64,000 bases of DNA from a virus (lineage: Duplodnaviria; Caudoviricetes). Shown here in pieces: positions 4,442 to 37,725 of the stretch (within the stretch, counting starts at the first letter, position 1; the number at the start of each line of letters is the position of its first letter). A program made the position numbers and the translations under genes. The notes beneath the pieces were generated by a model, which was given only the letters and a program-made list of their open reading frames with translations, made no database searches and was not told the origin of the DNA. The stretch is taken from positions 1,836 through 65,835 of IMG/VR virus record IMGVR_UViG_3300050120_000237; one strand, written 5' to 3'.

Positions 4442-4809
4442 AGGTGTTCCCAGTCGAAGCTGCGCACCGTGTGGACGCCGGGTTTGAAATTCACCAGCGG
4501 CTTGCCGCGCGCAATGAAATGGTCGGCTTCCACCTGCATGCCATAGCTGCGTTCCCAGCCGTCGGCTTGGTACATGATAAGCCCACGCGCCGCTTCCATC
4601 AGCGGCTCGTCGTCGGGCAGCCAAAGATTGTGGTCCAGCGGGTCCAAGTTGCATTCCACCGCGACCGGGTGGCTGTGCACGATGGGCGAAAACACCGACA
4701 GGCCGGCCTGCAAGAAATACCCGCGCGCGCGCACCGCCATCCAGTAAGCCGCTTCGATGCCTTCCGCATATTTGGAATACGGCGTGGCGAGATACCAAAA
4801 GCCCTTCAT
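4438..4809 (-). CDS. DUF1937 family protein (nucleoside deoxyribosyltransferase-like fold)
   Basis: YLATPYS, VFSPIVHSH, GWERSYGM..E motifs. Confidence 0.8.
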   Translation of the reverse strand: MKGFWYLATPYSKYAEGIEAAYWMAVRARGYFLQAGLSVFSPIVHSHPVAVECNLDPLDHNLWLPDDEPLMEAARGLIMYQADGWERSYGMQVEADHFIARGKPLVNFKPGVHTVRSFDWEHL

Positions 4810-6074
4810 GCTTCGGCCTTTTTCTTTTTGGCCAAGCGTTCGGCCTTGATTTCCTCGAACGTGCGCCCGTCACCGTCCAGCGTGGCTTTCAGCCCGGTGT
4901 GCAATTCCCAGCGCCCGACCGTGACGTCGGTATATCCCGGCGTAAGTTCGCTGCCGAAATAGGTCCGGTCGGTAAGTTCGCAGGCCAGCATGGTGGATCC
5001 CGAACCGTTGAACGGGTCGCACACCGTCTTGGCCATGTCGGTTACCTCGATAACCTTCACCAGCAATTCCACCGGCTTTTCCGTGGCGTGGTTTATGTTG
5101 CCGCTGCGCTTGCACCTGATCACGTTGCCCTGCGCCTTTTTGGGGTCGAAAGGCGACTTCACCGCGATGCCGCACATAATCAGTTCGTGCTGCATGCGCC
5201 AGCCGGCGCCCATGCCGGGGGTTTCCTTGTCCCACACGATCATGTTGCGCACGCCATAGCCGCTGCTTTCGATCACGTCGAACAGGGTCAGCCACATGCG
5301 CCAGTCGGTGAAGGCATAGACGACGCCAGCGCCGATGGTGGGAATAACGGATTTCATCAGCGCGCTATAGCCGCGCGACGACAGGGTATCGTTGGCGACC
5401 ATTTCGCTGCCGCGCGTGCCGACGCTGCCGGCACCTTTGCCTGCTTCCTGAAAGCCGCCGCTGCAATACGGCGGGTCGGTCAGCACCATGTCGATGCCGG
5501 TGCCGTTGAACAGCTTGGCCATGCTTGCCTGGTCTGAACTGTCGCCGCAAATCAGGCGGTGACGGCCCAGCAGCCACAGGTCGCCGCGCTTGGAAATCGG
5601 GTTCTTGGGGATTTGCTGCGCCGGCTCGGGAAGGCGGCGGGTGTCTTCCTCTTTCACGAAGCCCTGCACCTGCAGGTCGCCAAGTTCGCCAAGGTCGAAA
5701 CCAAGGCTGCCAAGGTCGATGCCGCTGTTGTGCAGTTCGCCCAGTTCGGCGCGCAGCAGTTCTTCGTTCCAGCCGGCATTCAGCGCAATGCGATTGTCGG
5801 CAATCGCCAGCTTGCGCCACTGTTCAGCGGATAGGCCCACCTTGGTGATGGTGTGTATCTCTGACCAGCCCAGCAGCAGCACCGCAGCGAGTCTGCCGTT
5901 GCCGACCCGCACCGTGTCGGTGGCGTCCAGCAGGATTGGGCCTGTCAAACCGCTTTCGGCGATCGAGGCGCGCAGCTGTTCGACCTGTTCTGGCGAATGC
6001 GTGCGCATGTTCTTGGGGTCGGGTTTGAGGTCTGCCGGGTTGCGGTAGACGATTTCTAGACGGTCGGCGGTCAT
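4806..6074 (-). CDS. ParB-like N-terminal domain fused to N6/N4 DNA methyltransferase
   Basis: LKPDPKNMRTH...GNGRLAA...IADNR (ParB); HRLICGDS, TDPPY, HATEKP, DPFNGSGST (beta-class MTase). Confidence 0.9.
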   Translation of the reverse strand: MTADRLEIVYRNPADLKPDPKNMRTHSPEQVEQLRASIAESGLTGPILLDATDTVRVGNGRLAAVLLLGWSEIHTITKVGLSAEQWRKLAIADNRIALNAGWNEELLRAELGELHNSGIDLGSLGFDLGELGDLQVQGFVKEEDTRRLPEPAQQIPKNPISKRGDLWLLGRHRLICGDSSDQASMAKLFNGTGIDMVLTDPPYCSGGFQEAGKGAGSVGTRGSEMVANDTLSSRGYSALMKSVIPTIGAGVVYAFTDWRMWLTLFDVIESSGYGVRNMIVWDKETPGMGAGWRMQHELIMCGIAVKSPFDPKKAQGNVIRCKRSGNINHATEKPVELLVKVIEVTDMAKTVCDPFNGSGSTMLACELTDRTYFGSELTPGYTDVTVGRWELHTGLKATLDGDGRTFEEIKAERLAKKKKAEA

Positions 6075-6268
6075 TTGCTTTTCTCGGAATGGTGCCCGGG
6101 TGTGCCGCTCGGGCAATCGGACAGGGTGGTGAAAGGGTCGATGCAGGAACCGCAGCCGGAAAGGCCCAGAAGAACCAGCAGCGCGATGGACAGCCGGCGC
6201 CACAGCGGCGGCTTGGGCGGTTTTGAGAACATGCGCAGGGTCTGCTGCCCAAATTCTAACTCGGTCAT
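6071..6268 (-). CDS. Putative small lipoprotein
   Basis: Basic residues, hydrophobic stretch and lipobox LSGC. Confidence 0.55.
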   Translation of the reverse strand: MTELEFGQQTLRMFSKPPKPPLWRRLSIALLVLLGLSGCGSCIDPFTTLSDCPSGTPGHHSEKSK

Positions 6269-6270
6269 GT

Positions 6271-6669
6271 TCAAGGCTCCGAAGGAAAGTCGCCGAACTC
6301 GTAACCGTCCAGCTTGATGAAAACATGCCAGCCGCAGCCGGCTGCAAAGCGCTTGCCGGACTCGCCCATGGCCGCGAGGGTTTCGGCGGTGGCGTCGAAG
6401 AAAGAGGCGGTGACGCGACCGTCGGCATGGACATGGTGCAACCCAATGCCAGTCCAAACGCCGCAGATGCAGCGAATGTTTGGCTTGAGGTGCTTTTCTG
6501 TTCCGTATTCGGAAACACCAATCCAGCCCGGCCCGGCAGAAAACGGGGTGTCGTGCGTGATGCGGGGAATAAGCACCGGGTCGTCTGGGCTGCATCGGTT
6601 TATGTCCCGGCCCAGCAGGTCCACCATTGGTGCGGCAGCAAGAGCGGCGGCGCGGCGTTCGTCGATCAT
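6271..6669 (-). CDS. Cys/His protein, distant DUF6527-like
   Basis: CICG...H..DGRVTASF...CGWHVFI pattern. Confidence 0.55.
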   Translation of the reverse strand: MIDERRAAALAAAPMVDLLGRDINRCSPDDPVLIPRITHDTPFSAGPGWIGVSEYGTEKHLKPNIRCICGVWTGIGLHHVHADGRVTASFFDATAETLAAMGESGKRFAAGCGWHVFIKLDGYEFGDFPSEP

Positions 6670-28952: not shown

Positions 28953-29924
28953 ATGCCAGACATTGATAAAAAGACGATAAGCGCCACGCAGGTGCCGGCA
29001 CTCTTTGACGCCAGCCCCTACCTGACCAAGTTCATGCTGTACCGCTGGTTCAAGTATGGCGACGAAGTGCACGGCAAAGAACACAACCGCATGGATTGGG
29101 GCACCCGCATGGAGCCCCTTTGTCTCGCGCAAGCTGCGGAAGACCTGTTCTTCGAAGTGATCCCAACGCGCTTGCCCGATGGCACACAGCCCTATGTGCG
29201 CAACGGCCTGCTGGGCTGCACGCGCGATGCGGCGATCATATGCCCAGACCGTGGACCAGGCGCTTTGGAAACCAAAGTTTGCTTCGACAGTATGTCGTGG
29301 ATGCGCGACTGGAACGGCGGCAAGTCTGTGCCGCGCCACATTGAAATACAGCTGCAAATGCAGATGAAAGTCGGCGACGGGGTGACCTCATACAAGTGGG
29401 GCGTCATTTCGGTGTGGTATGGCGGCGAACAGAAATACTTTGAACGCAAGCCGATGCTGGACCTGTGGGCGGCAGCCGACGCAGAAGCCGCCCAGTTCTT
29501 TGCGGACTTGGAAGCCGGCAAAGAACCAGACCCGTTTGGCGCGTCGATAGAGGCACCGCTTATCGCGCACGTCTTCCCGCCGGACGACGCCAAGGTGCTG
29601 GACCTGTCCAAGTTGGAACGCGGCAAAGCAGAACACGCCACGGCGCTGGCCATCGCAGAAGACGTGCGCATGATGGCTTACCACAGCGGCGAACGGCTGG
29701 GCCACGCGCGGGCAGAAAAGGAATTGAAAGCCAAGCTGCTGGCCATCGCAAAGGACAACGGCACGGTGCTGCTGCCCTATGGCATCAATTACAAAGTGAA
29801 GCAGTCGCCGCGCGCGGGCTTCATTGCCAAGCCGACCGTGGCCACTTCGGTGGACCCCTACGTTCCGCAAGACGTGCCGGAAGGCGACCTGACGCAGTTT
29901 TATAACGCAGACCTTGGAGGTTAA
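28953..29924 (+). CDS. YqaJ-like viral recombinase exonuclease
   Basis: ISATQVPAL..SPY.T, WGTRMEP, GCTRD, LETK, P.H..IQLQ.Q. Confidence 0.85.
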   Translation: MPDIDKKTISATQVPALFDASPYLTKFMLYRWFKYGDEVHGKEHNRMDWGTRMEPLCLAQAAEDLFFEVIPTRLPDGTQPYVRNGLLGCTRDAAIICPDRGPGALETKVCFDSMSWMRDWNGGKSVPRHIEIQLQMQMKVGDGVTSYKWGVISVWYGGEQKYFERKPMLDLWAAADAEAAQFFADLEAGKEPDPFGASIEAPLIAHVFPPDDAKVLDLSKLERGKAEHATALAIAEDVRMMAYHSGERLGHARAEKELKAKLLAIAKDNGTVLLPYGINYKVKQSPRAGFIAKPTVATSVDPYVPQDVPEGDLTQFYNADLGG

Positions 29925-29926
29925 GA

Positions 29927-30892
29927 GTGGCCAGCAGCGAACTTGTGATTTTTGAAAACCAGCTAAAGCCGCTTACCCGGCAGTTCGAAGACGTTCTGGC
30001 AGACCGCATGCCGGCGGAACGGCTGATGCGCACGCTGTTTATGGCGTGCGAGAAAACCCCCAAGCTGTTGGATTGCAACCGGCAGTCGCTGATTAACTGC
30101 GGCATGACCTTTGCGGTGCTGGCGCTGGAAACCGACGGCGTGACCGGGCAGGGATACATTCTGCCGTTCAAGCAGCAGGCCCAGCCGGTGGTTGGGTACA
30201 AAGGCTACAACACCATCGGCGCGCGCTCGCGCCTGACCATCACCGGGCAGGTGGTGCGCGAGGGCGACGAGTTCGATTTCCAAATGGGCACCAAGGCGTT
30301 TGTGCACCACAAGCCAGCCTTGGACGATAGCGGCAGGATCATTGCCGCTTGGGCACAGGCCGAAGCCTTCGACCGGCCGCCCATCATTGAAGTGCTGGGC
30401 CTCAAAGCATTGATGGCCGTCAAGGCGAAGTCGCCCGGCGCGCGCATGTCGGACAGCCCTTGGAACGACCCGGCCATTGGCCTGCCTGCGATGTTCGGCA
30501 AGACGGCAAAGCGCCGCCTTGCGCGGTCCACCCCGATGGAATGGGCGCGGCCGGAATTTCAGCAGGCGGCGGCGCTCGACGAAGCGTTCGAGGAAAGGGG
30601 CATGCTGTCCCAGCTTTCGCCCACCAAGGGCCTGATGCTGGAAGGCGTGCCGTCGCCCATCACAAAGCGCGAACCGGGCGAAACCCCGACGATGGACGAC
30701 ATAACGGGCCCCAAGCCGGACCCGGAACTGGAAGAACTGAAAGCCACGGGCAACGAAGCAGCGCAGGGCGGCGAACATGCGCTGGTGTCGTGGTGGAAGT
30801 CATTGACGCCACGCCAGATGCGGATTCCCGGGCTGGACGAATACAAAAACACCACCTTGAAGCCGCTCGCGGTCGAAGCCGACAAAAACTAG
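29927..30892 (+). CDS. recT: RecT-family single-strand annealing protein
   Basis: PKLLDCNRQSL, GYILPF, VGYKG, VREGDEF, MFGKTAKRRL; adjacent to YqaJ. Confidence 0.88.
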   Translation: MASSELVIFENQLKPLTRQFEDVLADRMPAERLMRTLFMACEKTPKLLDCNRQSLINCGMTFAVLALETDGVTGQGYILPFKQQAQPVVGYKGYNTIGARSRLTITGQVVREGDEFDFQMGTKAFVHHKPALDDSGRIIAAWAQAEAFDRPPIIEVLGLKALMAVKAKSPGARMSDSPWNDPAIGLPAMFGKTAKRRLARSTPMEWARPEFQQAAALDEAFEERGMLSQLSPTKGLMLEGVPSPITKREPGETPTMDDITGPKPDPELEELKATGNEAAQGGEHALVSWWKSLTPRQMRIPGLDEYKNTTLKPLAVEADKN

Positions 30893-30919
30893 AAACCACC
30901 CACCACAAGGAAAACTGCA

Positions 30920-32497
30920 ATGCGCGTTCTGAAATTACTTTCCGAAAACATAAAGCGGATTAGCGTGGTCCAAATCACGCCCGAGGGAAACCTTGTGCAA
31001 ATCACCGGCAAGAATGAGGAAGGCAAGTCGTCGGTGCTGGACTCCATATTCATGCTGCTGGGCGGCGCCGACGCCATCCCCGAAATGCCCATCCGCAAGG
31101 GCCACAAGACTGCGCGCATTGAAGGCACGCTGGGCGGCGACGATGGTGTGCACTATATCGCCACCCGCAGCTTCACCGAAAAGGGCAGCTATCTAAAGGT
31201 CGTTGGCGCTGATGGTGCGAAATACGGCAGCCCAGACAAACTGCTGAAAGACCTCATGGGCTCAATTGGCTTCGACCCCATCAGCTTTATGAAATTGAAG
31301 CCCAAGGACAAGTTCGACACGCTGCGCAAGGTCGTGGTGCTGAAAGACAAAGGCGGCAACGATATCGACTTGGCAGCCCTCGCGCGCCGCCGGCAGACCG
31401 CCTTTGACGACCGCACCACCATCAACCGCGACCTTTCCAGCGCCAAGGCGCGCGCCGACGCCATCGTGGTGCCCGATGATCTGCCCGACGAAGAACCCGA
31501 CCGGCAGGCCATCGTGGTGCGTTTGAGCGGTGTCAGCGAACACAACACCGCCATCGCGCGCCTGGTCCGCAACCGCGAAGACGCGGCAAAGACCGTGGTC
31601 GAATGGGAACGTGAAGTGGAAGAACGCAAGGCAGCGCTGAAAGAGGCGCAAGAGGAAATGGACCACGCCACAGAAAAGCTGGCGCACTGGGTGGAAAACA
31701 AGGCCACGGTGGACGCGGTGGAAATCCCAGACCAGCAAGACCCCGCCGCGATCACCGCCGAACTGGCGGCTGCCGACGAAATCGCCGAAGGCTTCCGCTT
31801 GCAGGCGTCTAAAATCACCGTGCTGGCGGAAGTCGATAAGCACCAGCGCCTTTCCGACGAACACACCAAGGCCATCGAGGCAATCGACCAGACCAAGGAA
31901 GCGGCCCTGAAAACCGCAGCCATGCCGATTGAAGGGCTGGCGTTCGCCGACGACCTATTGCTGTTCAACGGCATCCCGCTGGAACAGGCCAACGCCGCCA
32001 CGCAGCTGCGTGTCTCTGCCGCCATCGCCGCCGCCTTGAACCCCAAGCTGCGCGTGATCCTGTGCCGCGACGGGTCGCTGCTGGACAGCAAAAGCCTTGC
32101 CGCGCTGGCCCAGTTTGCCGAGGAAAAGGACATGCAGATTTGGCTGGAACGGGTTGACGAAAGCGGCGAGGTCGGTTTCGTCATGGAAGACGGCCACGTT
32201 AAGGGGCAGGAAGACTTGGTGGCGTCGCATGCCGAAGCCGAAGCCAACGCCCCGGCCACCGGCAGCGACCCCACGGCTGGGGTCACCATGGACCCGGGCG
32301 GCGAAAAGGAAGTGCGCGCCCGCAAGTATCTGGCGTCGATGCTTGCCGCCCTTCCGAAGCAGACCACCGTCGAACAGTTGGAGGTCGGAAACGCGCAGGT
32401 GAAAGTAAAGCTGTCTGGATTCCCGAACCTCATTCAACAGGAATGGGCGCCGTCTTATCTGTCGGCGTTGAAGGCCCTGACCGGGAAGAAGCACTGA
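30920..32497 (+). CDS. Rad50/SMC-like ATPase with coiled coil
   Basis: ENIKRI, ITGKNEEGKSSVLD Walker A, central coiled coil, RVILCRDGSLLD. Confidence 0.85.
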   Translation: MRVLKLLSENIKRISVVQITPEGNLVQITGKNEEGKSSVLDSIFMLLGGADAIPEMPIRKGHKTARIEGTLGGDDGVHYIATRSFTEKGSYLKVVGADGAKYGSPDKLLKDLMGSIGFDPISFMKLKPKDKFDTLRKVVVLKDKGGNDIDLAALARRRQTAFDDRTTINRDLSSAKARADAIVVPDDLPDEEPDRQAIVVRLSGVSEHNTAIARLVRNREDAAKTVVEWEREVEERKAALKEAQEEMDHATEKLAHWVENKATVDAVEIPDQQDPAAITAELAAADEIAEGFRLQASKITVLAEVDKHQRLSDEHTKAIEAIDQTKEAALKTAAMPIEGLAFADDLLLFNGIPLEQANAATQLRVSAAIAAALNPKLRVILCRDGSLLDSKSLAALAQFAEEKDMQIWLERVDESGEVGFVMEDGHVKGQEDLVASHAEAEANAPATGSDPTAGVTMDPGGEKEVRARKYLASMLAALPKQTTVEQLEVGNAQVKVKLSGFPNLIQQEWAPSYLSALKALTGKKH

Positions 32498-32637
32498 TGG
32501 CCAAGGCCATCCCATTGCAGTTGGCCACGGCGTTAATCGTGGCCTCCTATCTGTCAAACCACAAACTGTCCGCGCGGAAGGTGGACCGGCTGATTTTGTC
32601 GGTTCACGCCGCGCTGGCGGAAATCGGGAAGAAATGA
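32497..32637 (+). CDS. MucR/Ros N-terminal domain-only protein (46 aa)
   Basis: LIVASYLSNHKL....VDRLILSVHAAL matches MucR IVSAYVSNN......LI.SVH.AL; no zinc finger. Confidence 0.75.
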   Translation: MAKAIPLQLATALIVASYLSNHKLSARKVDRLILSVHAALAEIGKK

Positions 32638-33047
32638 ACACCGCCATCACATGCCCGTATTGCTCCCGGCCTGCCGCTTTGGTGACCGGCAAGGTGATTT
32701 ATCCGCACCGCAAAGACCTGCACGAAAAAACCTTCTGGGCCTGCATGCCCTGCAAGGCGTGGGTGGGCTGCCATCCCGGCACCGACGTGGCGCTGGGCAG
32801 GCTGGCGAACGAAGAACTGCGCAACGCCAAGCGCGCGGCCCACGCGGCGTTCGACCCGCTGTGGCAGCCGGAAGTGCAGACCGGCAGCAAGAACAAGCGG
32901 CGCAAGATGCGCGACGCCGCTTATGACGCGCTGGCGCGGGTGCTGAATATCCCGCGCGAGGAATGCCACATTGGCATGTTCGACTTGGACCGCTGCACGC
33001 GCACGGTCGAAGCCTGCAAGACCCTGAAACTAGGAACCAAAGGATAG
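32634..33047 (+). CDS. DUF3268-type zinc-finger protein
   Basis: CPYC, C..C.AWVGCH, LGRLAN.ELR, FDPLW, CHIGMFD. Confidence 0.85.
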   Translation: MNTAITCPYCSRPAALVTGKVIYPHRKDLHEKTFWACMPCKAWVGCHPGTDVALGRLANEELRNAKRAAHAAFDPLWQPEVQTGSKNKRRKMRDAAYDALARVLNIPREECHIGMFDLDRCTRTVEACKTLKLGTKG

Positions 33048-33050
33048 GCC

Positions 33051-33512
33051 ATGGCCACCGATAAAAAGACTGCCTTTATCGACATTGTGTTTGCGGACTC
33101 CGACACGCCCGGCGGCGTCGGTCAGTTCGTGGAAATCGACAACCACGAAGGCAAAAGCATATCGCTGCCCGGCGAGTGGGTGACGCGCGGCGATGGATAT
33201 AGCGCCTTGCGCCTGCCGTTGCAGCGCGGCACATGGCCCCTGCGCGAAGCCGGCCCAGCCATCAATGCGCTGCGCACCTGCCAGCGCCAGCTTGACGCCG
33301 ACGGAACCGAAGTTGGCGTGTCCCGGCAGGCGCTGGAAGAAACGCTGGCTGCCTTCAAGGAAGTGCTGCAAGCGATTGACGACGAAGCAGCGGTGCGCAG
33401 GCGCTGGGTGGAAGACTTCAAGGGCAAGCTGAACAGCTTCCTGATGGACGACACCAAGCCGGCAGAACAGCGCCACGGCATCGCCGCATTTCTCGAAACC
33501 TTCGAATTTTAA
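33051..33512 (+). CDS. Hypothetical protein
   Basis: FVEID...GKSI..GEW and QLDADG.EVGVSRQA motifs. Confidence 0.6.
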   Translation: MATDKKTAFIDIVFADSDTPGGVGQFVEIDNHEGKSISLPGEWVTRGDGYSALRLPLQRGTWPLREAGPAINALRTCQRQLDADGTEVGVSRQALEETLAAFKEVLQAIDDEAAVRRRWVEDFKGKLNSFLMDDTKPAEQRHGIAAFLETFEF

Positions 33513-33523
33513 AGGCGGTGGTC

Positions 33524-33745
33524 ATGGACAGAAAAGATTTTGAAATGTCCGCCGCGCAGTTCGCCAAATTGATGGAGGCGTGCAAGCCGCAAATGTACCT
33601 CGTCGCCAATGGAACGGAGCCTGATGTTCGCGGAACCATTTTGAGAGCGTGGGACGCGCTTGGTGACGAAATGGGATTTGTCGGCAGCACGGCTTTGCCA
33701 ATCCCGGGTAAGTCGCATCATTTTTTCACCGCCGTCGAGAAATAG
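33524..33745 (+). CDS. Hypothetical protein
   Basis: AWDALG.EMGF...FFTA motif. Confidence 0.6.
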   Translation: MDRKDFEMSAAQFAKLMEACKPQMYLVANGTEPDVRGTILRAWDALGDEMGFVGSTALPIPGKSHHFFTAVEK

Positions 33746-33756
33746 GAAACACCACC

Positions 33757-34374
33757 ATGTTTAAATATGCCGTCTTTGATACCGAAACGTCCGGCCTGTT
33801 CGACTTTAAGTTGGCTGCCGACCACGAAACGCAGCCCCGCATGTGTTCTTTCGCCATGGCTTTTCTGAACGCCAACCTTGAAGTGGAAAACCACTACAGC
33901 GCGTTGGTGAAGCCGGACGGCTGGGCGCTCGACGACAATTGCGAGGCAGCCCAAAAGAACGGCCTCACGCAAGCGCGCCTGATGGCAGAAGGCGTGCCGG
34001 TCAGGGAAATTCTGGACATGTATAACGCCGCGCTGAATGACGGCCTTATCATGGTGGGGTTCAACGTGTCGTTTGACCTCAAGATGATGCGGGCAGAACT
34101 GCGTCGGGCCGGCCTGCCCGACCGCTTCGACACCACCGCGTCGGTCGATTGCATGCGGCCCCTGACCAATATCTGCAAAATCAAAAAGGCCAGCGGTGGC
34201 GGCTTCAAGTGGCCGAAACTGACGGAAGCCCACCAGTTCCTGTTTGGCGAAGGCTTCGAAGGCGCGCACGGCGCGCTGCCCGACACCCTCGCTGCCGCCC
34301 GTGTGTTCAAGCACATGGTGGCCAACAAGATGCTTTCCGAACAGGCCCTGACCGGCGTGCAGGAAATGCGCTGA
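33757..34374 (+). CDS. DEDDh 3'-5' exonuclease (DnaQ-like)
   Basis: FDTETSGL, GFNVSFD, KWPKL.EA, AHGALPD. Confidence 0.9.
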   Translation: MFKYAVFDTETSGLFDFKLAADHETQPRMCSFAMAFLNANLEVENHYSALVKPDGWALDDNCEAAQKNGLTQARLMAEGVPVREILDMYNAALNDGLIMVGFNVSFDLKMMRAELRRAGLPDRFDTTASVDCMRPLTNICKIKKASGGGFKWPKLTEAHQFLFGEGFEGAHGALPDTLAAARVFKHMVANKMLSEQALTGVQEMR

Positions 34375-34859
34375 TGCTGGGAAAACTCACACCCCCGTGG
34401 CGCTGGCAGACTTTCGGCGACCTGCTGATGCTGGTTACCGATGCTGGCGGCTCCCGCGTCGTGCTTGCCGGCAGCCGGCAGGACGGCACGCTGATGGTCT
34501 GCGATGATACAGGGCGGCTGGTGCCTCTTAAACCGGACCACCCCATCGCGGCTTTCATTGTGGAAGCGTGCAACGGCTGGACGATGGCCAAGCTAACGGC
34601 ATCTGAATATGCCAAGGCCGTTGCGGCATGCGCGATGTTCCAGTCTGGCGGTCGGTGGTCCAGCTTAATGACGGTCAGCGAAAGGACCACCAGCGACGGG
34701 CCAAAGGCGCTTTCGGATTATGCCGAAAAGCTGGAACGCACGCTGGTGGAATTGCTCAAGCAGGTGGACGACCGGGCCGGGCCCGGCGGGCTGGTGGGCA
34801 ACACCCCGCTGTGCCGTGCTGCCGACGACGCCCGCAAGCTGCTACTGGGCGAAGAATGA
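34374..34859 (+). CDS. Hypothetical protein
   Basis: TPPWRW...HPIAAFIVEACN motif. Confidence 0.6.
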   Translation: MLGKLTPPWRWQTFGDLLMLVTDAGGSRVVLAGSRQDGTLMVCDDTGRLVPLKPDHPIAAFIVEACNGWTMAKLTASEYAKAVAACAMFQSGGRWSSLMTVSERTTSDGPKALSDYAEKLERTLVELLKQVDDRAGPGGLVGNTPLCRAADDARKLLLGEE

Positions 34860-35065
34860 AAGCCAAGCCCACACACCGCGCCATCACCAACGCAAAGCTG
34901 GCGGTGCTGCGGGAAGCAAAGGCCCGCATTGGGCGCATTCCATCACTTCGGTTTCCGACCAGGCGGCTGGACGAAGCGGCATGCGCCCAGAACGGCATGA
35001 ACTACAGGGCACGCAAGGTGCTGCTGGAAATGATCGAAGAACTAGAGCGGGGAACGAAGCAGTGA
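34856..35065 (+). CDS. Small basic protein
   Basis: Coupled at both ends. Confidence 0.5.
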   Translation: MKAKPTHRAITNAKLAVLREAKARIGRIPSLRFPTRRLDEAACAQNGMNYRARKVLLEMIEELERGTKQ

Positions 35066-36771
35066 ACAAATCCATGGTGCTGGGCACCACCAGCTTGAAG
35101 CAGGAAATCACCTTGGACGTGGAAGCCCTAATCGGCTCCCACCTGCTTATTCAGGCCAATGCCGGCGGTGGCAAAAGCCGGACCATTCGCAAGATTATGG
35201 AGATTGCGGACGGGAAGGCGCAGCGCATAATTCTGGACGTGGAAGACGAATTCCACACCCTGCGCGAAATCTCCCCGGGCATGGTGGTGCTGGGCCCCGA
35301 GGGCGACGCGCCCGCCAATCTGGCAAACGCCGCGATGCTGCCGAACTTCCTTCTGGAAACCGGGCTGGATGCGGTGTTGCAAATAAACCAGCTTGGCCTT
35401 GAAGGGCGGCGCGAGTTTATCGCCCGGTTCCTTCACGCCCTCATAGGCGCCCCACGGCACCTGTGGCACCCGGCGCTGGTGGTGCTGGACGAAACCCACC
35501 GCTATGCCCCGCAGGCCGGCAAGGAAGTCAGCAGCGACCCCGTGGCGGCGCTGGCATCGGAAGGGCGCAAGCGTGGGTTCACCGCCATATTTGCCACCCA
35601 GCGCATGGCAAAAATCGACAAGGACGCCACTGGTGACGTGAATAACTGGCTGATGGGACGCGCCGGGCAATCCACCGACCGCGACCGCTGCGCCGACGAA
35701 CTGGGCCTGAAAAAGACCAGCCCGGAAATGCGCGCGCTGGGAAAGCTGAACCCCGGTAACTTCTGGGTGATCGGCCCGGCCCTGACAGCCGAAGCCACGC
35801 TGGTGCACGTCGGCAATGTCCAATCCACCCACCTGCGCAGCGGTCAGCGCGGCGTGCCGGTGCCGCCCGGCGACAAGGCCCTCAAAGCCATGATGGCCAA
35901 GCTGCATGTGGAAGAACCGAAGCCGGCGCCGGCCACGTCACTTTCTGCCCCCACGAACGTGACCCCGGAAAGTTACGCGGCGTCCAAGGACGACCTCGCG
36001 GCAGAATACCGGCGCGGCTATGGCGAAGGCGACGCGGCGGGTTTTTCGCGCGCGGTCGCCATCATCGAAACAAACCGAGCCGGGGCGTTGCGCGCGTTGG
36101 CAGCCCAGCAGAGCAACGCCACCGCCGCCCTAGAATACATGCAGGACTTGACCATAGACCTGCAGAACGCCGCGCCGGCATCCCTGCCGGCGCCTGCGCC
36201 CAAGATTGCCCCCGTGGCGGAAGGGAATACGCGCCCGGTTTTAAAGCCGAATGGTGGGAGTGCTGGTTCAAGTCCAGCCGGGGGCACCAAGCAGCCTGTG
36301 GAACAGCGCGTGTTGAACGCTCTTGCGGAATTGGAGGCGATGAAAGTCACCGCCCCCACCCGTGAAATCGTGGCTTTCATGTGCGATTATTCCAACACCA
36401 CCAGCACCGGCTTTGCCCGCGCCATGGCGGCGCTGAACAAGGACGGGCTTGTTTCCGCCGGTGGTGGGCAGCTTATGCTGACCGATGCCGGCAGGCGCCG
36501 GGCGCAGCCCCCGCCCAAACGCACCCCGACAGAACTTCGCGCCAGGATCGTCGAAATGATCGGTGGAAAGGCCGGGCAGGTCATGGGCGCGTTGGTGAAA
36601 TCCTATCCGCAGGCCGTCACGCGCGAGGCATTGGCGGCGGCCGCTGGATACACCAACACCACCAGCACGGGATTTGCGCAGGCGATGGCGAAGCTGTCGG
36701 CGCTCAATTTCGTGGAATATCCAGAAAAGGGGCAGGTTGTCGCCGCGCGCCTTCTGTTTCAGGGGGCATAG
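35062..36771 (+). CDS. HerA/DUF87-like ATPase with two C-terminal winged-helix repeats
   Basis: ANAGGGKS, ILDVEDEF, VVLDETH..APQ, GRKRG, ATQR; duplicated Y.NTTSTGFA.AMA.L. Confidence 0.85.
   Translation: MNKSMVLGTTSLKQEITLDVEALIGSHLLIQANAGGGKSRTIRKIMEIADGKAQRIILDVEDEFHTLREISPGMVVLGPEGDAPANLANAAMLPNFLLETGLDAVLQINQLGLEGRREFIARFLHALIGAPRHLWHPALVVLDETHRYAPQAGKEVSSDPVAALASEGRKRGFTAIFATQRMAKIDKDATGDVNNWLMGRAGQSTDRDRCADELGLKKTSPEMRALGKLNPGNFWVIGPALTAEATLVHVGNVQSTHLRSGQRGVPVPPGDKALKAMMAKLHVEEPKPAPATSLSAPTNVTPESYAASKDDLAAEYRRGYGEGDAAGFSRAVAIIETNRAGALRALAAQQSNATAALEYMQDLTIDLQNAAPASLPAPAPKIAPVAEGNTRPVLKPNGGSAGSSPAGGTKQPVEQRVLNALAELEAMKVTAPTREIVAFMCDYSNTTSTGFARAMAALNKDGLVSAGGGQLMLTDAGRRRAQPPPKRTPTELRARIVEMIGGKAGQVMGALVKSYPQAVTREALAAAAGYTNTTSTGFAQAMAKLSALNFVEYPEKGQVVAARLLFQGA
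36208..36289 (+). tRNA. tRNA-Leu-like element with degenerate anticodon arm, nested in frame in the HerA-like CDS
   Basis: Acceptor GCCCCCG/CGGGGGC plus ACCA, T-arm GCTGG-TTCAAGT-CCAGC, D-arm GCG/CGC with GG. Confidence 0.65.
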
Positions 36772-37725
36772 ATGGGCGCTACCACCATCGAATGGACGAA
36801 GTACGTTTGGCCAATCGTGCAGGGGTGCGATCTGGTCAGCCCGGGCTGCACCAATTGCTATGCCGTGCCGCTGCTGTGGCGCTTGCAGCACAACCCGCTG
36901 GCCAAGGTCAGCGACCCCATAGCCGGGCTGGTGACCAAGAACAAATACGGCAAGCTGCATTTCACCGGCAAAGTTGCGTTGCGCCATGATCGGCTGGAAG
37001 ACCCGCTGAAATGGAAGACGCCGCGGCGCATTTTCGTGCCCAGCCATGGCGACATTTTCCACAAATATGTGCCGTTCGACTTTCTGGACCGCATCTTTCT
37101 GACCATGGCCTATGCCCGCCGCCATACCTTTCAGGTTCTGACAAAGCGCGGCGACCGCATGCAGCGCTATATAACGGATCCCGAGACACCAAACCGCATC
37201 AACGCGCTGTTGCGCGCGGAAACCGCGCCTTATGTGAATTGGCAGCTGAAAACTTGGCCGCTGCCGAACGTGTGGCTGGGCATCAGCGCCGAAGACCAGA
37301 CCCGCCTGACCGAACGGTGGCAGTTCCTGCGCGACACGCCGGCCGCGCTGCGCTTCCTGTCCTATGAACCGGCGCTTGAAGCCATAGACCTGACCGCGAT
37401 CTGCAACGGCTGGCACTTCGAAGACGCGCTGGCGGGCGTGCGCTATCACGACACGCCAGCCGGCGGCGGCGGCGCGACGATGAAAATCCCAAAGCTGGAC
37501 TGGGGTATTGGCGGGCTGGAAAGCGGCAACAAGGCGCGCGAAGGAAACGTGCGCTGGCTGCACAGCTTCAAGAACCAGTTCCAGCGTGCCGGCGTGCCGG
37601 TATTCATCAAGCAGTTGGGCCGCAGGCCGATGCTGGACACTGAGCCCATGGTTTTGAAGGACCGCAAGGGGGGCGACCCGGAAGAGTGGCCAATAGATTT
37701 GCGGGTCAGGCAATTTCCGACATGA
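36772..37725 (+). CDS. Phage Gp37/Gp68 (DUF5131) family protein
   Basis: TTIEWT, GC..VSPGCTNCYA, GDIFH, HTFQVLTKR, NVWLG.S.EDQ, FLSYEP, FIKQLG. Confidence 0.9.
   Translation: MGATTIEWTKYVWPIVQGCDLVSPGCTNCYAVPLLWRLQHNPLAKVSDPIAGLVTKNKYGKLHFTGKVALRHDRLEDPLKWKTPRRIFVPSHGDIFHKYVPFDFLDRIFLTMAYARRHTFQVLTKRGDRMQRYITDPETPNRINALLRAETAPYVNWQLKTWPLPNVWLGISAEDQTRLTERWQFLRDTPAALRFLSYEPALEAIDLTAICNGWHFEDALAGVRYHDTPAGGGGATMKIPKLDWGIGGLESGNKAREGNVRWLHSFKNQFQRAGVPVFIKQLGRRPMLDTEPMVLKDRKGGDPEEWPIDLRVRQFPT

Follow-up and report, generated by a model that had tools for sequence, protein, structure and literature searches.

A leucine-type tRNA sequence translated in frame within the interdomain linker of a HerA-like ATPase gene of a phage

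The tRNA-like element and the gene that contains it

The DNA described here is a stretch of 64 kb (the window) that makes up most of a 65,835-bp virus record in IMG/VR (IMGVR_UViG_3300050120_000237), which was rated 100% complete by CheckV. In this window, a tRNA-like element of 82 nt was located on the plus strand, lying inside and in frame with a gene that codes for a HerA-like ATPase joined to winged helix-turn-helix (wHTH) domains. The parts of the gene and of the element are listed below.

35074..36771, plus strand: HerA/FtsK-type P-loop ATPase with a long helix, a disordered linker and two winged-helix repeats (565 aa, protein P0002; Pfam, Foldseek and homologues)
36172..36288, plus strand: predicted disordered interdomain linker, residues 367-405, containing the element (AlphaFold2 predicted local distance difference test (pLDDT) <50, no secondary structure)
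36208..36289, plus strand: tRNA-Leu-type tRNA-like element, 82 nt, in frame as residues 379-406 of the host protein (ARAGORN; Rfam RF00005)
36208..36214, plus strand: 5′ strand of the acceptor stem, GCCCCCG, forming 7/7 pairs with 36279..36285; the preceding base is T (U at -1)
36217..36232, plus strand: D-arm with a 3-bp stem and a G.A pair, GGG within the loop (Rfam alignment)
36234..36250, plus strand: defective anticodon arm with the 7-nt loop TTTTAAA (non-standard pairs in Rfam; 2-base anticodon in ARAGORN)
36251..36261, plus strand: variable region, 11 nt, stemless (alignment with the tRNAs of loci L009 and L005, gaps of 3 and 6 nt)
36262..36278, plus strand: T-arm, GCTGG / TTCAAGT / CCAGC (sequence, 5/5 pairs; Rfam)
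36279..36289, plus strand: 3′ strand of the acceptor stem, CGGGGGC, followed by discriminator A and an encoded CCA (sequence; Rfam)
36298..36744, plus strand: two winged-helix repeats, residues 409-476 and 485-557 (AlphaFold2 secondary structure; DNA repeat D1; weak Pfam helix-turn-helix matches)

The product given by the gene caller, P0002, matched DUF87 in Pfam (E 8.1e-9), and a Foldseek search with the protein model returned HerA (4d2i_B, E 4.4e-13), which identified it as a HerA-like ATPase. A word-based search yielded 111 homologues, mostly full length, and an exhaustive search yielded 6075 representatives at E<=0.001; the 20 homologues that were aligned had a common fused architecture, consisting of the ATPase, a variable middle and two winged-helix repeats. 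The host reading frame is considered real, and it most likely begins with the ATG at 35074, inside a longer open reading frame (ORF) at 34720..36771, because the 5′ extension of this ORF (34720..35073) is missing from the homologues and has a Trp/Arg-rich translation that does not resemble protein. With a genuine coding frame of 111 homologues overlapping it, the element is not a stand-alone tRNA gene.

In the AlphaFold2 model of P0002 (mean pLDDT 80.7), the element residues follow the long helix, which spans 321-366, and precede the first winged helix, which starts at 409, and thus lie in the part predicted to be disordered; an earlier reading of the letters alone (the sequence-only reading) had likewise placed them in a linker between the ATPase and wHTH domains. 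It was also noticed that a 44-nt direct repeat (D1, 36392..36435 and 36653..36696, 82% identical) encodes 'SNTTSTGFA.AMA' in both winged-helix repeats, which therefore arose by duplication.

Sequence and structure of the element

The element was the sole tRNA reported by ARAGORN in the window, with the output 'tRNA-???' and a two-base anticodon (ta), implying a loop of 6 nt. Positions 36208..36286 matched Rfam RF00005 with 43.5 bits (E 8.9e-8, 901 nt searched), and the curated gathering score of this family, above which a sequence counts as an Rfam tRNA, is 29. The coordinates, sequence and frame of the cloverleaf were as the sequence-only reading had given them, including the perfect 7-bp acceptor stem, the perfect T-arm and the encoded CCA, and the translation, APVAEGNTRPVLKPNGGSAGSSPAGGT, was verified as correct and in frame.

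The imperfection that had been noticed in the anticodon arm was borne out as well. Three anticodon-stem pairs are marked non-standard in the Rfam alignment, and in the canonical register two of the five pairs are Watson-Crick (C28-G42 and G30-C40); a shift by one base gives four pairs and a 6-nt loop, matching the ARAGORN output. By coincidence, the nucleotides of the element run in step with tRNA numbering through position 45, and the anticodon falls exactly on codon 12; the loop TTTTAAA puts TTA at tRNA positions 34-36, which reads as Leu in the host frame. The combination of a 5-bp anticodon stem, a 7-nt loop and an assignable anticodon, by which a functional decoder is known, was not found in the element.

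The element is present once in the 65,835-bp record. Two DNA sequencing runs contain the locus, one of which may be the source of the record, and the other was identical over the pieces compared, with no variants. The element is genuine sequence and not an assembly artefact, since contig pieces from the second run, which belongs to another study, cover both of its junctions with zero differences. It is a tRNA-derived insert that is translated, clearly beyond chance, and of the two observations whose joint absence would have told against this, namely a covariance-model score above the cut-off and conservation of the peptide (see below), both were made. A 199-nt contig of run X2 matches only the 34 nt at 36157..36190, with 4 differences and unrelated flanks, and probably comes from another organism sharing a GC-rich string that codes for Ala and Pro.

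tRNA type and sequence relatives

Alignment with a genuine tRNA-Leu(GAG) at L009 revealed 60 identical positions out of 79, the first 15 nt and the last 27 nt (through the discriminator) being the same. A Leu-like tRNA with the anticodon UUA, at L005:344-431, was identical to the element at 63 of 82 aligned positions and has the same 7-nt loop TTTTAAA. Judged by its identity with the tRNA of L009, the element has an acceptor stem, a D-arm and a discriminator (A73) of leucine type, which agrees with the Leu-like D-arm and discriminator noticed from the letters alone. A type-II tRNA has a long variable arm with a stem of its own, whereas the 11 nt of the element form no stem, being 3 and 6 nt shorter than the arms of the type-II tRNAs of L009 and L005, respectively. 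These alignments confirm a body that is leucine-type by sequence, with the anticodon arm and the variable arm both damaged.

Locus L005 is a contig of a Roseovarius metagenome-assembled genome, and the anticodon UUA of its well-formed type-II Leu-like tRNA would read the stop codon TAA. About 470 nt downstream lies a 77-nt class-I tRNA (L005:900-976, anticodon GCU) whose T-arm and acceptor 3′ strand are common with the element of the window; a small ORF is located between the two L005 tRNAs.

The exact 22-nt string of T-arm and acceptor strand was found at only 8 loci in a collection of genomes of 185,579 species, in tRNAs of five identities (Ser, Arg, Met, Leu and His) from unrelated phyla, and the proteins encoded at these loci had no similarity to the phage proteins. 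No other IMG/VR contig contains the 22-mer, nor did an exact 25-mer of the 3′ end of the element have a further match in IMG/VR. Two kinds of match were discarded: blastn matches in GenBank phages, which are T-arm matches of 28-30 nt to ordinary tRNAs, and a minus-strand match to the Rfam family Plastid-ycf2, which is below its own cut-off and is the complement of the T-arm.

Distribution among homologues

The peptide footprint of the element, defined as '[AV]PVAE' followed by 'GS[SNT]P' 22 residues further on, was present in 4 of 243 homologous proteins (P0002, P0003, P0006 and P0013). Two close relatives, P0004 and P0005, keep the 5′ part of the footprint alone and lack nine codons including the T-arm, with the gene intact. 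When residues 368-412 were used alone as the query, the query itself was the sole match.

At the DNA level, no tRNA-like element was found inside the homologous gene at any of 175 loci (83 from IMG/VR, 80 from metagenomes and 12 from alphaproteobacteria, a few contigs being counted twice), all of which encode proteins no more than 48% identical; all matches were flanking, and those confirmed by ARAGORN were ordinary tRNAs. ARAGORN was run on 91 of these loci, a pattern for acceptor stem plus T-arm on 163 and a covariance model of the top half on all 175. The nearest relatives with nucleotide sequence had identities of at most 48% in IMG/VR and at most 46% in JGI/ENA metagenomes, and GenBank phages provided three records, all below 60%; among 401 alphaproteobacterial genomes, 16 have a family member, with an identity of 39% or less. 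The element is rare.

In a quick tree of the whole proteins, P0002-P0005 formed one clade (support 99), P0006 and P0011 together were its sister group (97), and P0013 fell elsewhere (89). P0004 and P0005 are apparently identical from 'VAERKT' to the C-terminus save for one residue, and they differ upstream. On an ATPase of the same clade, P0006 and P0011 have another DNA-binding module at the C-terminus, so that the family shows module shuffling.

Ordinary tRNA genes were located about 0.3-2.3 kb from the homologous HerA-like gene in the loci of at least eight relatives (L080:1887-1959, L162:1464-1687 and 5295-5373, L136:4881-5137, L060:5310-5383, L013:6411-6487 and L016:6185-6260; L154 and L158 are near-identical to L162). 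An ORF at L016 (4396-6156) with weak similarity to integrases, scoring 19 bits, which is below the cut-off, adjoins the tRNA-Ala, some 2 kb from the gene.

Conservation of the element in four proteins

In the four carriers, the length of the element is fixed at 28 codons with the same spacing. In each of the six pairs of carriers, 11-14 of the 14 codons at 1-5 and 19-27 (acceptor stem, 5′ strand of the D-stem, T-arm, A73 and CC) agree, compared with 2-5 of the 13 codons at 6-18 (D-loop, anticodon arm and variable region) (Fisher's test, one-sided, p 6e-6 to 0.04 across the pairs). The linker flanking the element is only 19-70% identical among the carriers and the ATPase domains are 50-79% identical. 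P0006 keeps the footprint despite its different C-terminal module (19% identity).

In P0013, Ala1 is replaced by Val and Gly26 by Asp, which forces the pair 2:71 from C-G to U-A with both sides changed; this is one compensatory stem change of the kind that had been called for as a check, deduced from the peptides. The remaining difference is at codon 22 (Ser, Asn or Thr), which affects position 59 of the T-loop while A58 is kept. T-loop position 59 is variable among tRNAs. Codons for G53, T54, T55, C56, R57 and A58 remain compatible in all carriers, and 'Thr then Lys/Ile' preserves ACC-A in 4 of 4. All 12 pairs of the acceptor stem and T-arm are permitted by the peptides of all four carriers, compared with 38 of 12,598 windows taken from the linkers of 105 other homologues, although the agreement of the four partly restates their common ancestry. 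The codon at the anticodon specifies Leu, Ser, Tyr and Ser in the four carriers, and a perfect 5-bp anticodon stem is permitted by the peptides of P0003 and P0013, a weak point in that 20% of the null windows permit it likewise. This indirect but coherent evidence suggests that the top half seems to be under constraint as nucleic acid.

Codon usage sets the element apart from its gene. Among 11,032 windows in 42 phage genes, its 28 codons rank 85th lowest for codon adaptation, and they are the lowest in their own gene; GC content at third codon positions is 0.57 versus about 0.8, and the codons include TTA (5 of 1012 Leu codons in the phage), AGT, TCA, GGT and GCT. Either a constraint apart from translation maintains these codons, or too little time has passed for them to adapt; the latter is hard to square with carrier ATPase domains that are only 50-79% identical.

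A possible RNA-processing signal within a coding sequence

Based on these observations, we tentatively propose, as a possible rather than a probable reading, that the element is a captured tRNA that no longer decodes, its top half having been retained because, as RNA, it serves as a signal to tRNA-processing enzymes. A leucine-type tRNA gene would have been captured in frame in the disordered linker of the HerA-like ATPase-wHTH gene in a small phage lineage. With its broken anticodon stem, its shortened variable arm and an anticodon that varies between carriers, it would have ceased to decode, while the top half (acceptor stem, T-arm, discriminator A and CCA) would have been retained by selection acting on nucleic acid. 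On the mRNA, this top half may fold as a tRNA-like minihelix that host tRNA-processing enzymes recognise. RNase P would then cut between U(-1) and G(+1), at 36207/36208, and trimming from the 3′ side would halt at the encoded CCA, so that the message would be severed between the parts encoding the ATPase and the wHTH domains, freeing an RNA of about 82 nt. Transcripts left uncut would be translated through, the peptide being tolerated because the linker is flexible.

RNase P and the enzymes that act on tRNA 3′ ends recognise their substrates by an acceptor/T-arm minihelix with U at -1, A73 and CCA, and the structural prerequisites for RNase P (a 7-bp acceptor stem, a 5-bp T stem, T at -1 and ACCA) are present in the sequence of the element. 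When the acceptor stem and T-arm were enforced, the predicted fold had -33.6 kcal/mol versus a minimum of -34.1 kcal/mol, only 0.5 above it. An RNase P/Z processing signal was among the suggestions of the sequence-only reading, and it fits the acceptor, T-arm and ACCA codons kept in the four carriers; cleavage itself, like folding of the RNA in vivo and any benefit to the phage, is what we infer.

Several observations weigh against this proposal. Folded without constraints, the sequence does not give a cloverleaf, and its stability does not exceed that of shuffled sequences (z -0.72; 46 of 200 shuffles as good). The cross-species evidence was read from peptides, in which third codon positions are unseen, and the stems are to be called compatible rather than paired; a pair changed on both sides was seen just once (2:71 in P0013). 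Part of the conservation may act on the protein, since the 3′ part adjoins the wHTH domain and 'GG..PVEQRVLNALAEL' is found also in P0022, which is without the element. The element is dispensable in P0004 and P0005, close relatives whose genes are intact without nine of its codons. No promoter or terminator signal marks it, and no RNA run was among the sequencing runs found to contain the locus. That a phage should gain from cutting its own mRNA is a supposition on our part.

A wider version, in which the element serves both as a translated linker and as a minihelix excised by host tRNA processing, and in addition as a crossover point for the ATPase and DNA-binding modules, appears doubtful to us. 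If it held, the phage would control the amount of full-length ATPase-wHTH protein, or make a CCA-ended tRNA-like small RNA from within a gene.

Alternative explanations

A tRNA gene or fragment could have come to lie in a tolerant linker, for instance by module exchange from a neighbouring phage tRNA, and be decaying there, functionless both as RNA and as DNA. Such an origin would agree with an anticodon arm already decayed, with the loss of the 3′ half in P0004 and P0005 without harm to the gene, with carriers amounting to just 4 of 243 homologues and with a disordered linker that varies widely in length and sequence; the tRNA genes 0.3-2.3 kb from the homologous gene in at least eight loci would be a ready source. 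Decay, however, should strike both halves alike, yet 11-14 of 14 top codons are kept versus 2-5 of 13 bottom codons, the length is constant at exactly 28 codons, one acceptor pair is altered on both sides, and the codon usage is still unadapted although identity between the ATPase domains has fallen to 50-79%. We therefore regard a neutral relic as unlikely, while taking it seriously; if it were one, it would be a clean example of disordered linkers absorbing foreign DNA. Somewhat less likely still is a site of DNA recombination, either an attP-like phage attachment site (working or relic) that matches a host tRNA gene or a conserved island at which ATPase and wHTH modules are swapped. The 3′ ends of tRNA genes are classic phage att sites, and a mosaic boundary does coincide with the element: P0004 and P0005 appear near-identical from 'VAERKT' on and different upstream, P0006 combines the ATPase of the clade and the element with another C-terminal module, and P0013 carries the element yet groups elsewhere in the whole-protein tree. 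A conserved island would attract homologous exchange anyway in a phage encoding RecE/RecT-like proteins, and the weak integrase-like ORF of L016 (19 bits, below the cut-off) adjoins a tRNA-Ala about 2 kb from the gene. Nevertheless, neither a tyrosine integrase (PF00589) nor a serine recombinase (PF00239) was matched in the 65,835-bp record, rated complete, and no recombinase of the kind that goes with an attP was thus found to be encoded; no contig encoding the gene shows it interrupted; an att core requires no more of a tRNA than its 3′ part, yet the codons of the 5′ acceptor strand and D-stem are conserved and co-vary with the 3′ strand; and the 22-mer, occurring in only 8 loci of five tRNA identities from unrelated phyla, points to no consistent host tRNA. 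The attP relic that had been suggested from the letters alone is weakened by the lack of an integrase match, the conserved 5′ half and the intact gene in every assembly.

The conserved parts are precisely the acceptor stem, T-arm, A73 and CCA, which would also suit a decoy or sponge, made as RNA from the mRNA, against a host defence or toxin whose target is the acceptor end or the top half of tRNAs rather than the anticodon. Phages are known to carry tRNAs to counter tRNA-targeting defences. Such a role is improbable, because the element is a single copy in the mRNA of a replication module with no sign of high expression, and the close relatives P0004 and P0005 manage without it. Anticodon nucleases, for which the sequence-only reading had imagined a decoy, are disfavoured in particular, as the anticodon region is not conserved (Leu, Ser, Tyr and Ser) and the anticodon stem is broken here. 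A working decoding tRNA, such as a Leu-charged ochre suppressor with the anticodon UUA expressed within the gene, is the remaining candidate and a highly improbable one. The Rfam score lies above the cut-off, the loop TTTTAAA is the same as in the well-formed Leu-like UUA tRNA at L005, and the P0003 and P0013 peptides permit a perfect 5-bp anticodon stem; against this, only two of the five canonical anticodon-stem pairs are present, ARAGORN names no anticodon, the variable arm is shortened, the anticodon codon varies among carriers, and the null rate of 20% applies to the 5-of-5 stem. Moreover, the stop codons of the 42 phage genes are TAA in 12, TAG in 11 and TGA in 19, so that all three terminate genes in this phage. 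Overall, the interpretation first given to the element is partly supported, its proposal of an exapted tRNA being upheld in that the element is tRNA-derived, lies inside a gene of shared fused architecture and encodes part of the predicted disordered linker.

Comparison with known tRNAs and tRNA-like structures

The captured, non-decoding tRNA described here resembles the tRNA genes and pseudogenes of phages in belonging to the same sequence family, with a leucine-type body, CCA in the encoded sequence and a score exceeding the Rfam cut-off. It is unlike them in lying in frame in a genuine ORF, being translated and having no usable anticodon arm; to our knowledge, known phage tRNAs are intergenic.

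Modules of tRNA shape that RNase P or 3′ enzymes can recognise, as is proposed here, occur in longer RNAs, including the 3′ tRNA-like structures (TLS) of plant viruses, mimics associated with internal ribosome entry sites, mRNAs and long non-coding RNAs. According to a review, viral tRNA-like elements are placed in 5′ and 3′ untranslated regions (PMC4810235). Cleavage by RNase P in vitro is reported for mRNAs that have tRNA-like features, as is the release of a tRNA-like RNA from a plant non-coding RNA (PMC4565877, PMC6152437). In these accounts, such structures are sited in untranslated regions, an intron or non-coding RNA and are mostly mimics of shape, whereas the element is true tRNA sequence in a coding region of a bacterial virus and is read as protein; its cleavage is proposed. 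Being internal to a coding region, it lacks the location at a 3′ end or in an untranslated region that defines a viral TLS.

The attP of SSV type, in the integrase gene of an archaeal virus, is alike in that a sequence matching a tRNA stands inside a viral ORF. There the host gene is the integrase itself, which is split upon integration; in the phage studied here, the host gene is a HerA-like ATPase and the genome gave no integrase match. Mitochondrial polycistronic transcripts offer a further parallel, since in them tRNA structures are cut sites that separate coding segments. Those tRNAs, however, lie between genes and are functional decoders, unlike the element, which lies within one gene and between two domains.

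The element does not count among the decoding tRNAs, the TLS elements or the attP sites, since a defining feature of each class was looked for and was absent; it belongs with the tRNA-like modules of longer RNAs and with captured tRNAs. No in-frame tRNA-like element in a phage ORF was described in the titles and abstract openings of the top-ranked full-text literature matches. If the proposed reading is true, true tRNA sequence kept in the coding frame of a bacterial virus between two domains would represent both a new place and a new use, a protein linker could double as an RNA processing signal, and the gene would be a concrete case of a tRNA gene turned into coding sequence. It would also caution annotators against assuming, wherever a tRNA call and an ORF overlap, that one of the two must be false.

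Genome context

The genes on either side of the host gene are as follows.

28953..34374, plus strand: recombination/replication module upstream, with RecE-like, RecT-like, SbcC-like ATPase and DnaQ-like exonuclease genes (PHROGs)
36772..37725, plus strand: downstream gene, DUF5131 / phrog_2045 (E 1e-62; PHROGs), beginning directly after the stop codon of the host gene

Two other explanations of the locus were considered and rejected. A separate transcription unit was dismissed on the grounds that no promoter-like site lies near the element and terminator-like sites occur at chance level, and a Lambda-like replication origin inside the host gene was dismissed because the vicinity of the element has neither iterons nor an AT-rich stretch.

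Elsewhere in the window, the ORF at 4806..6521 on the minus strand joins a ParB-like domain and a DNA methyltransferase (phrog_498, E 1e-99; phrog_620). Its codons 61-72 have the worst codon adaptation in the phage, which suggests that the true start is probably further downstream.

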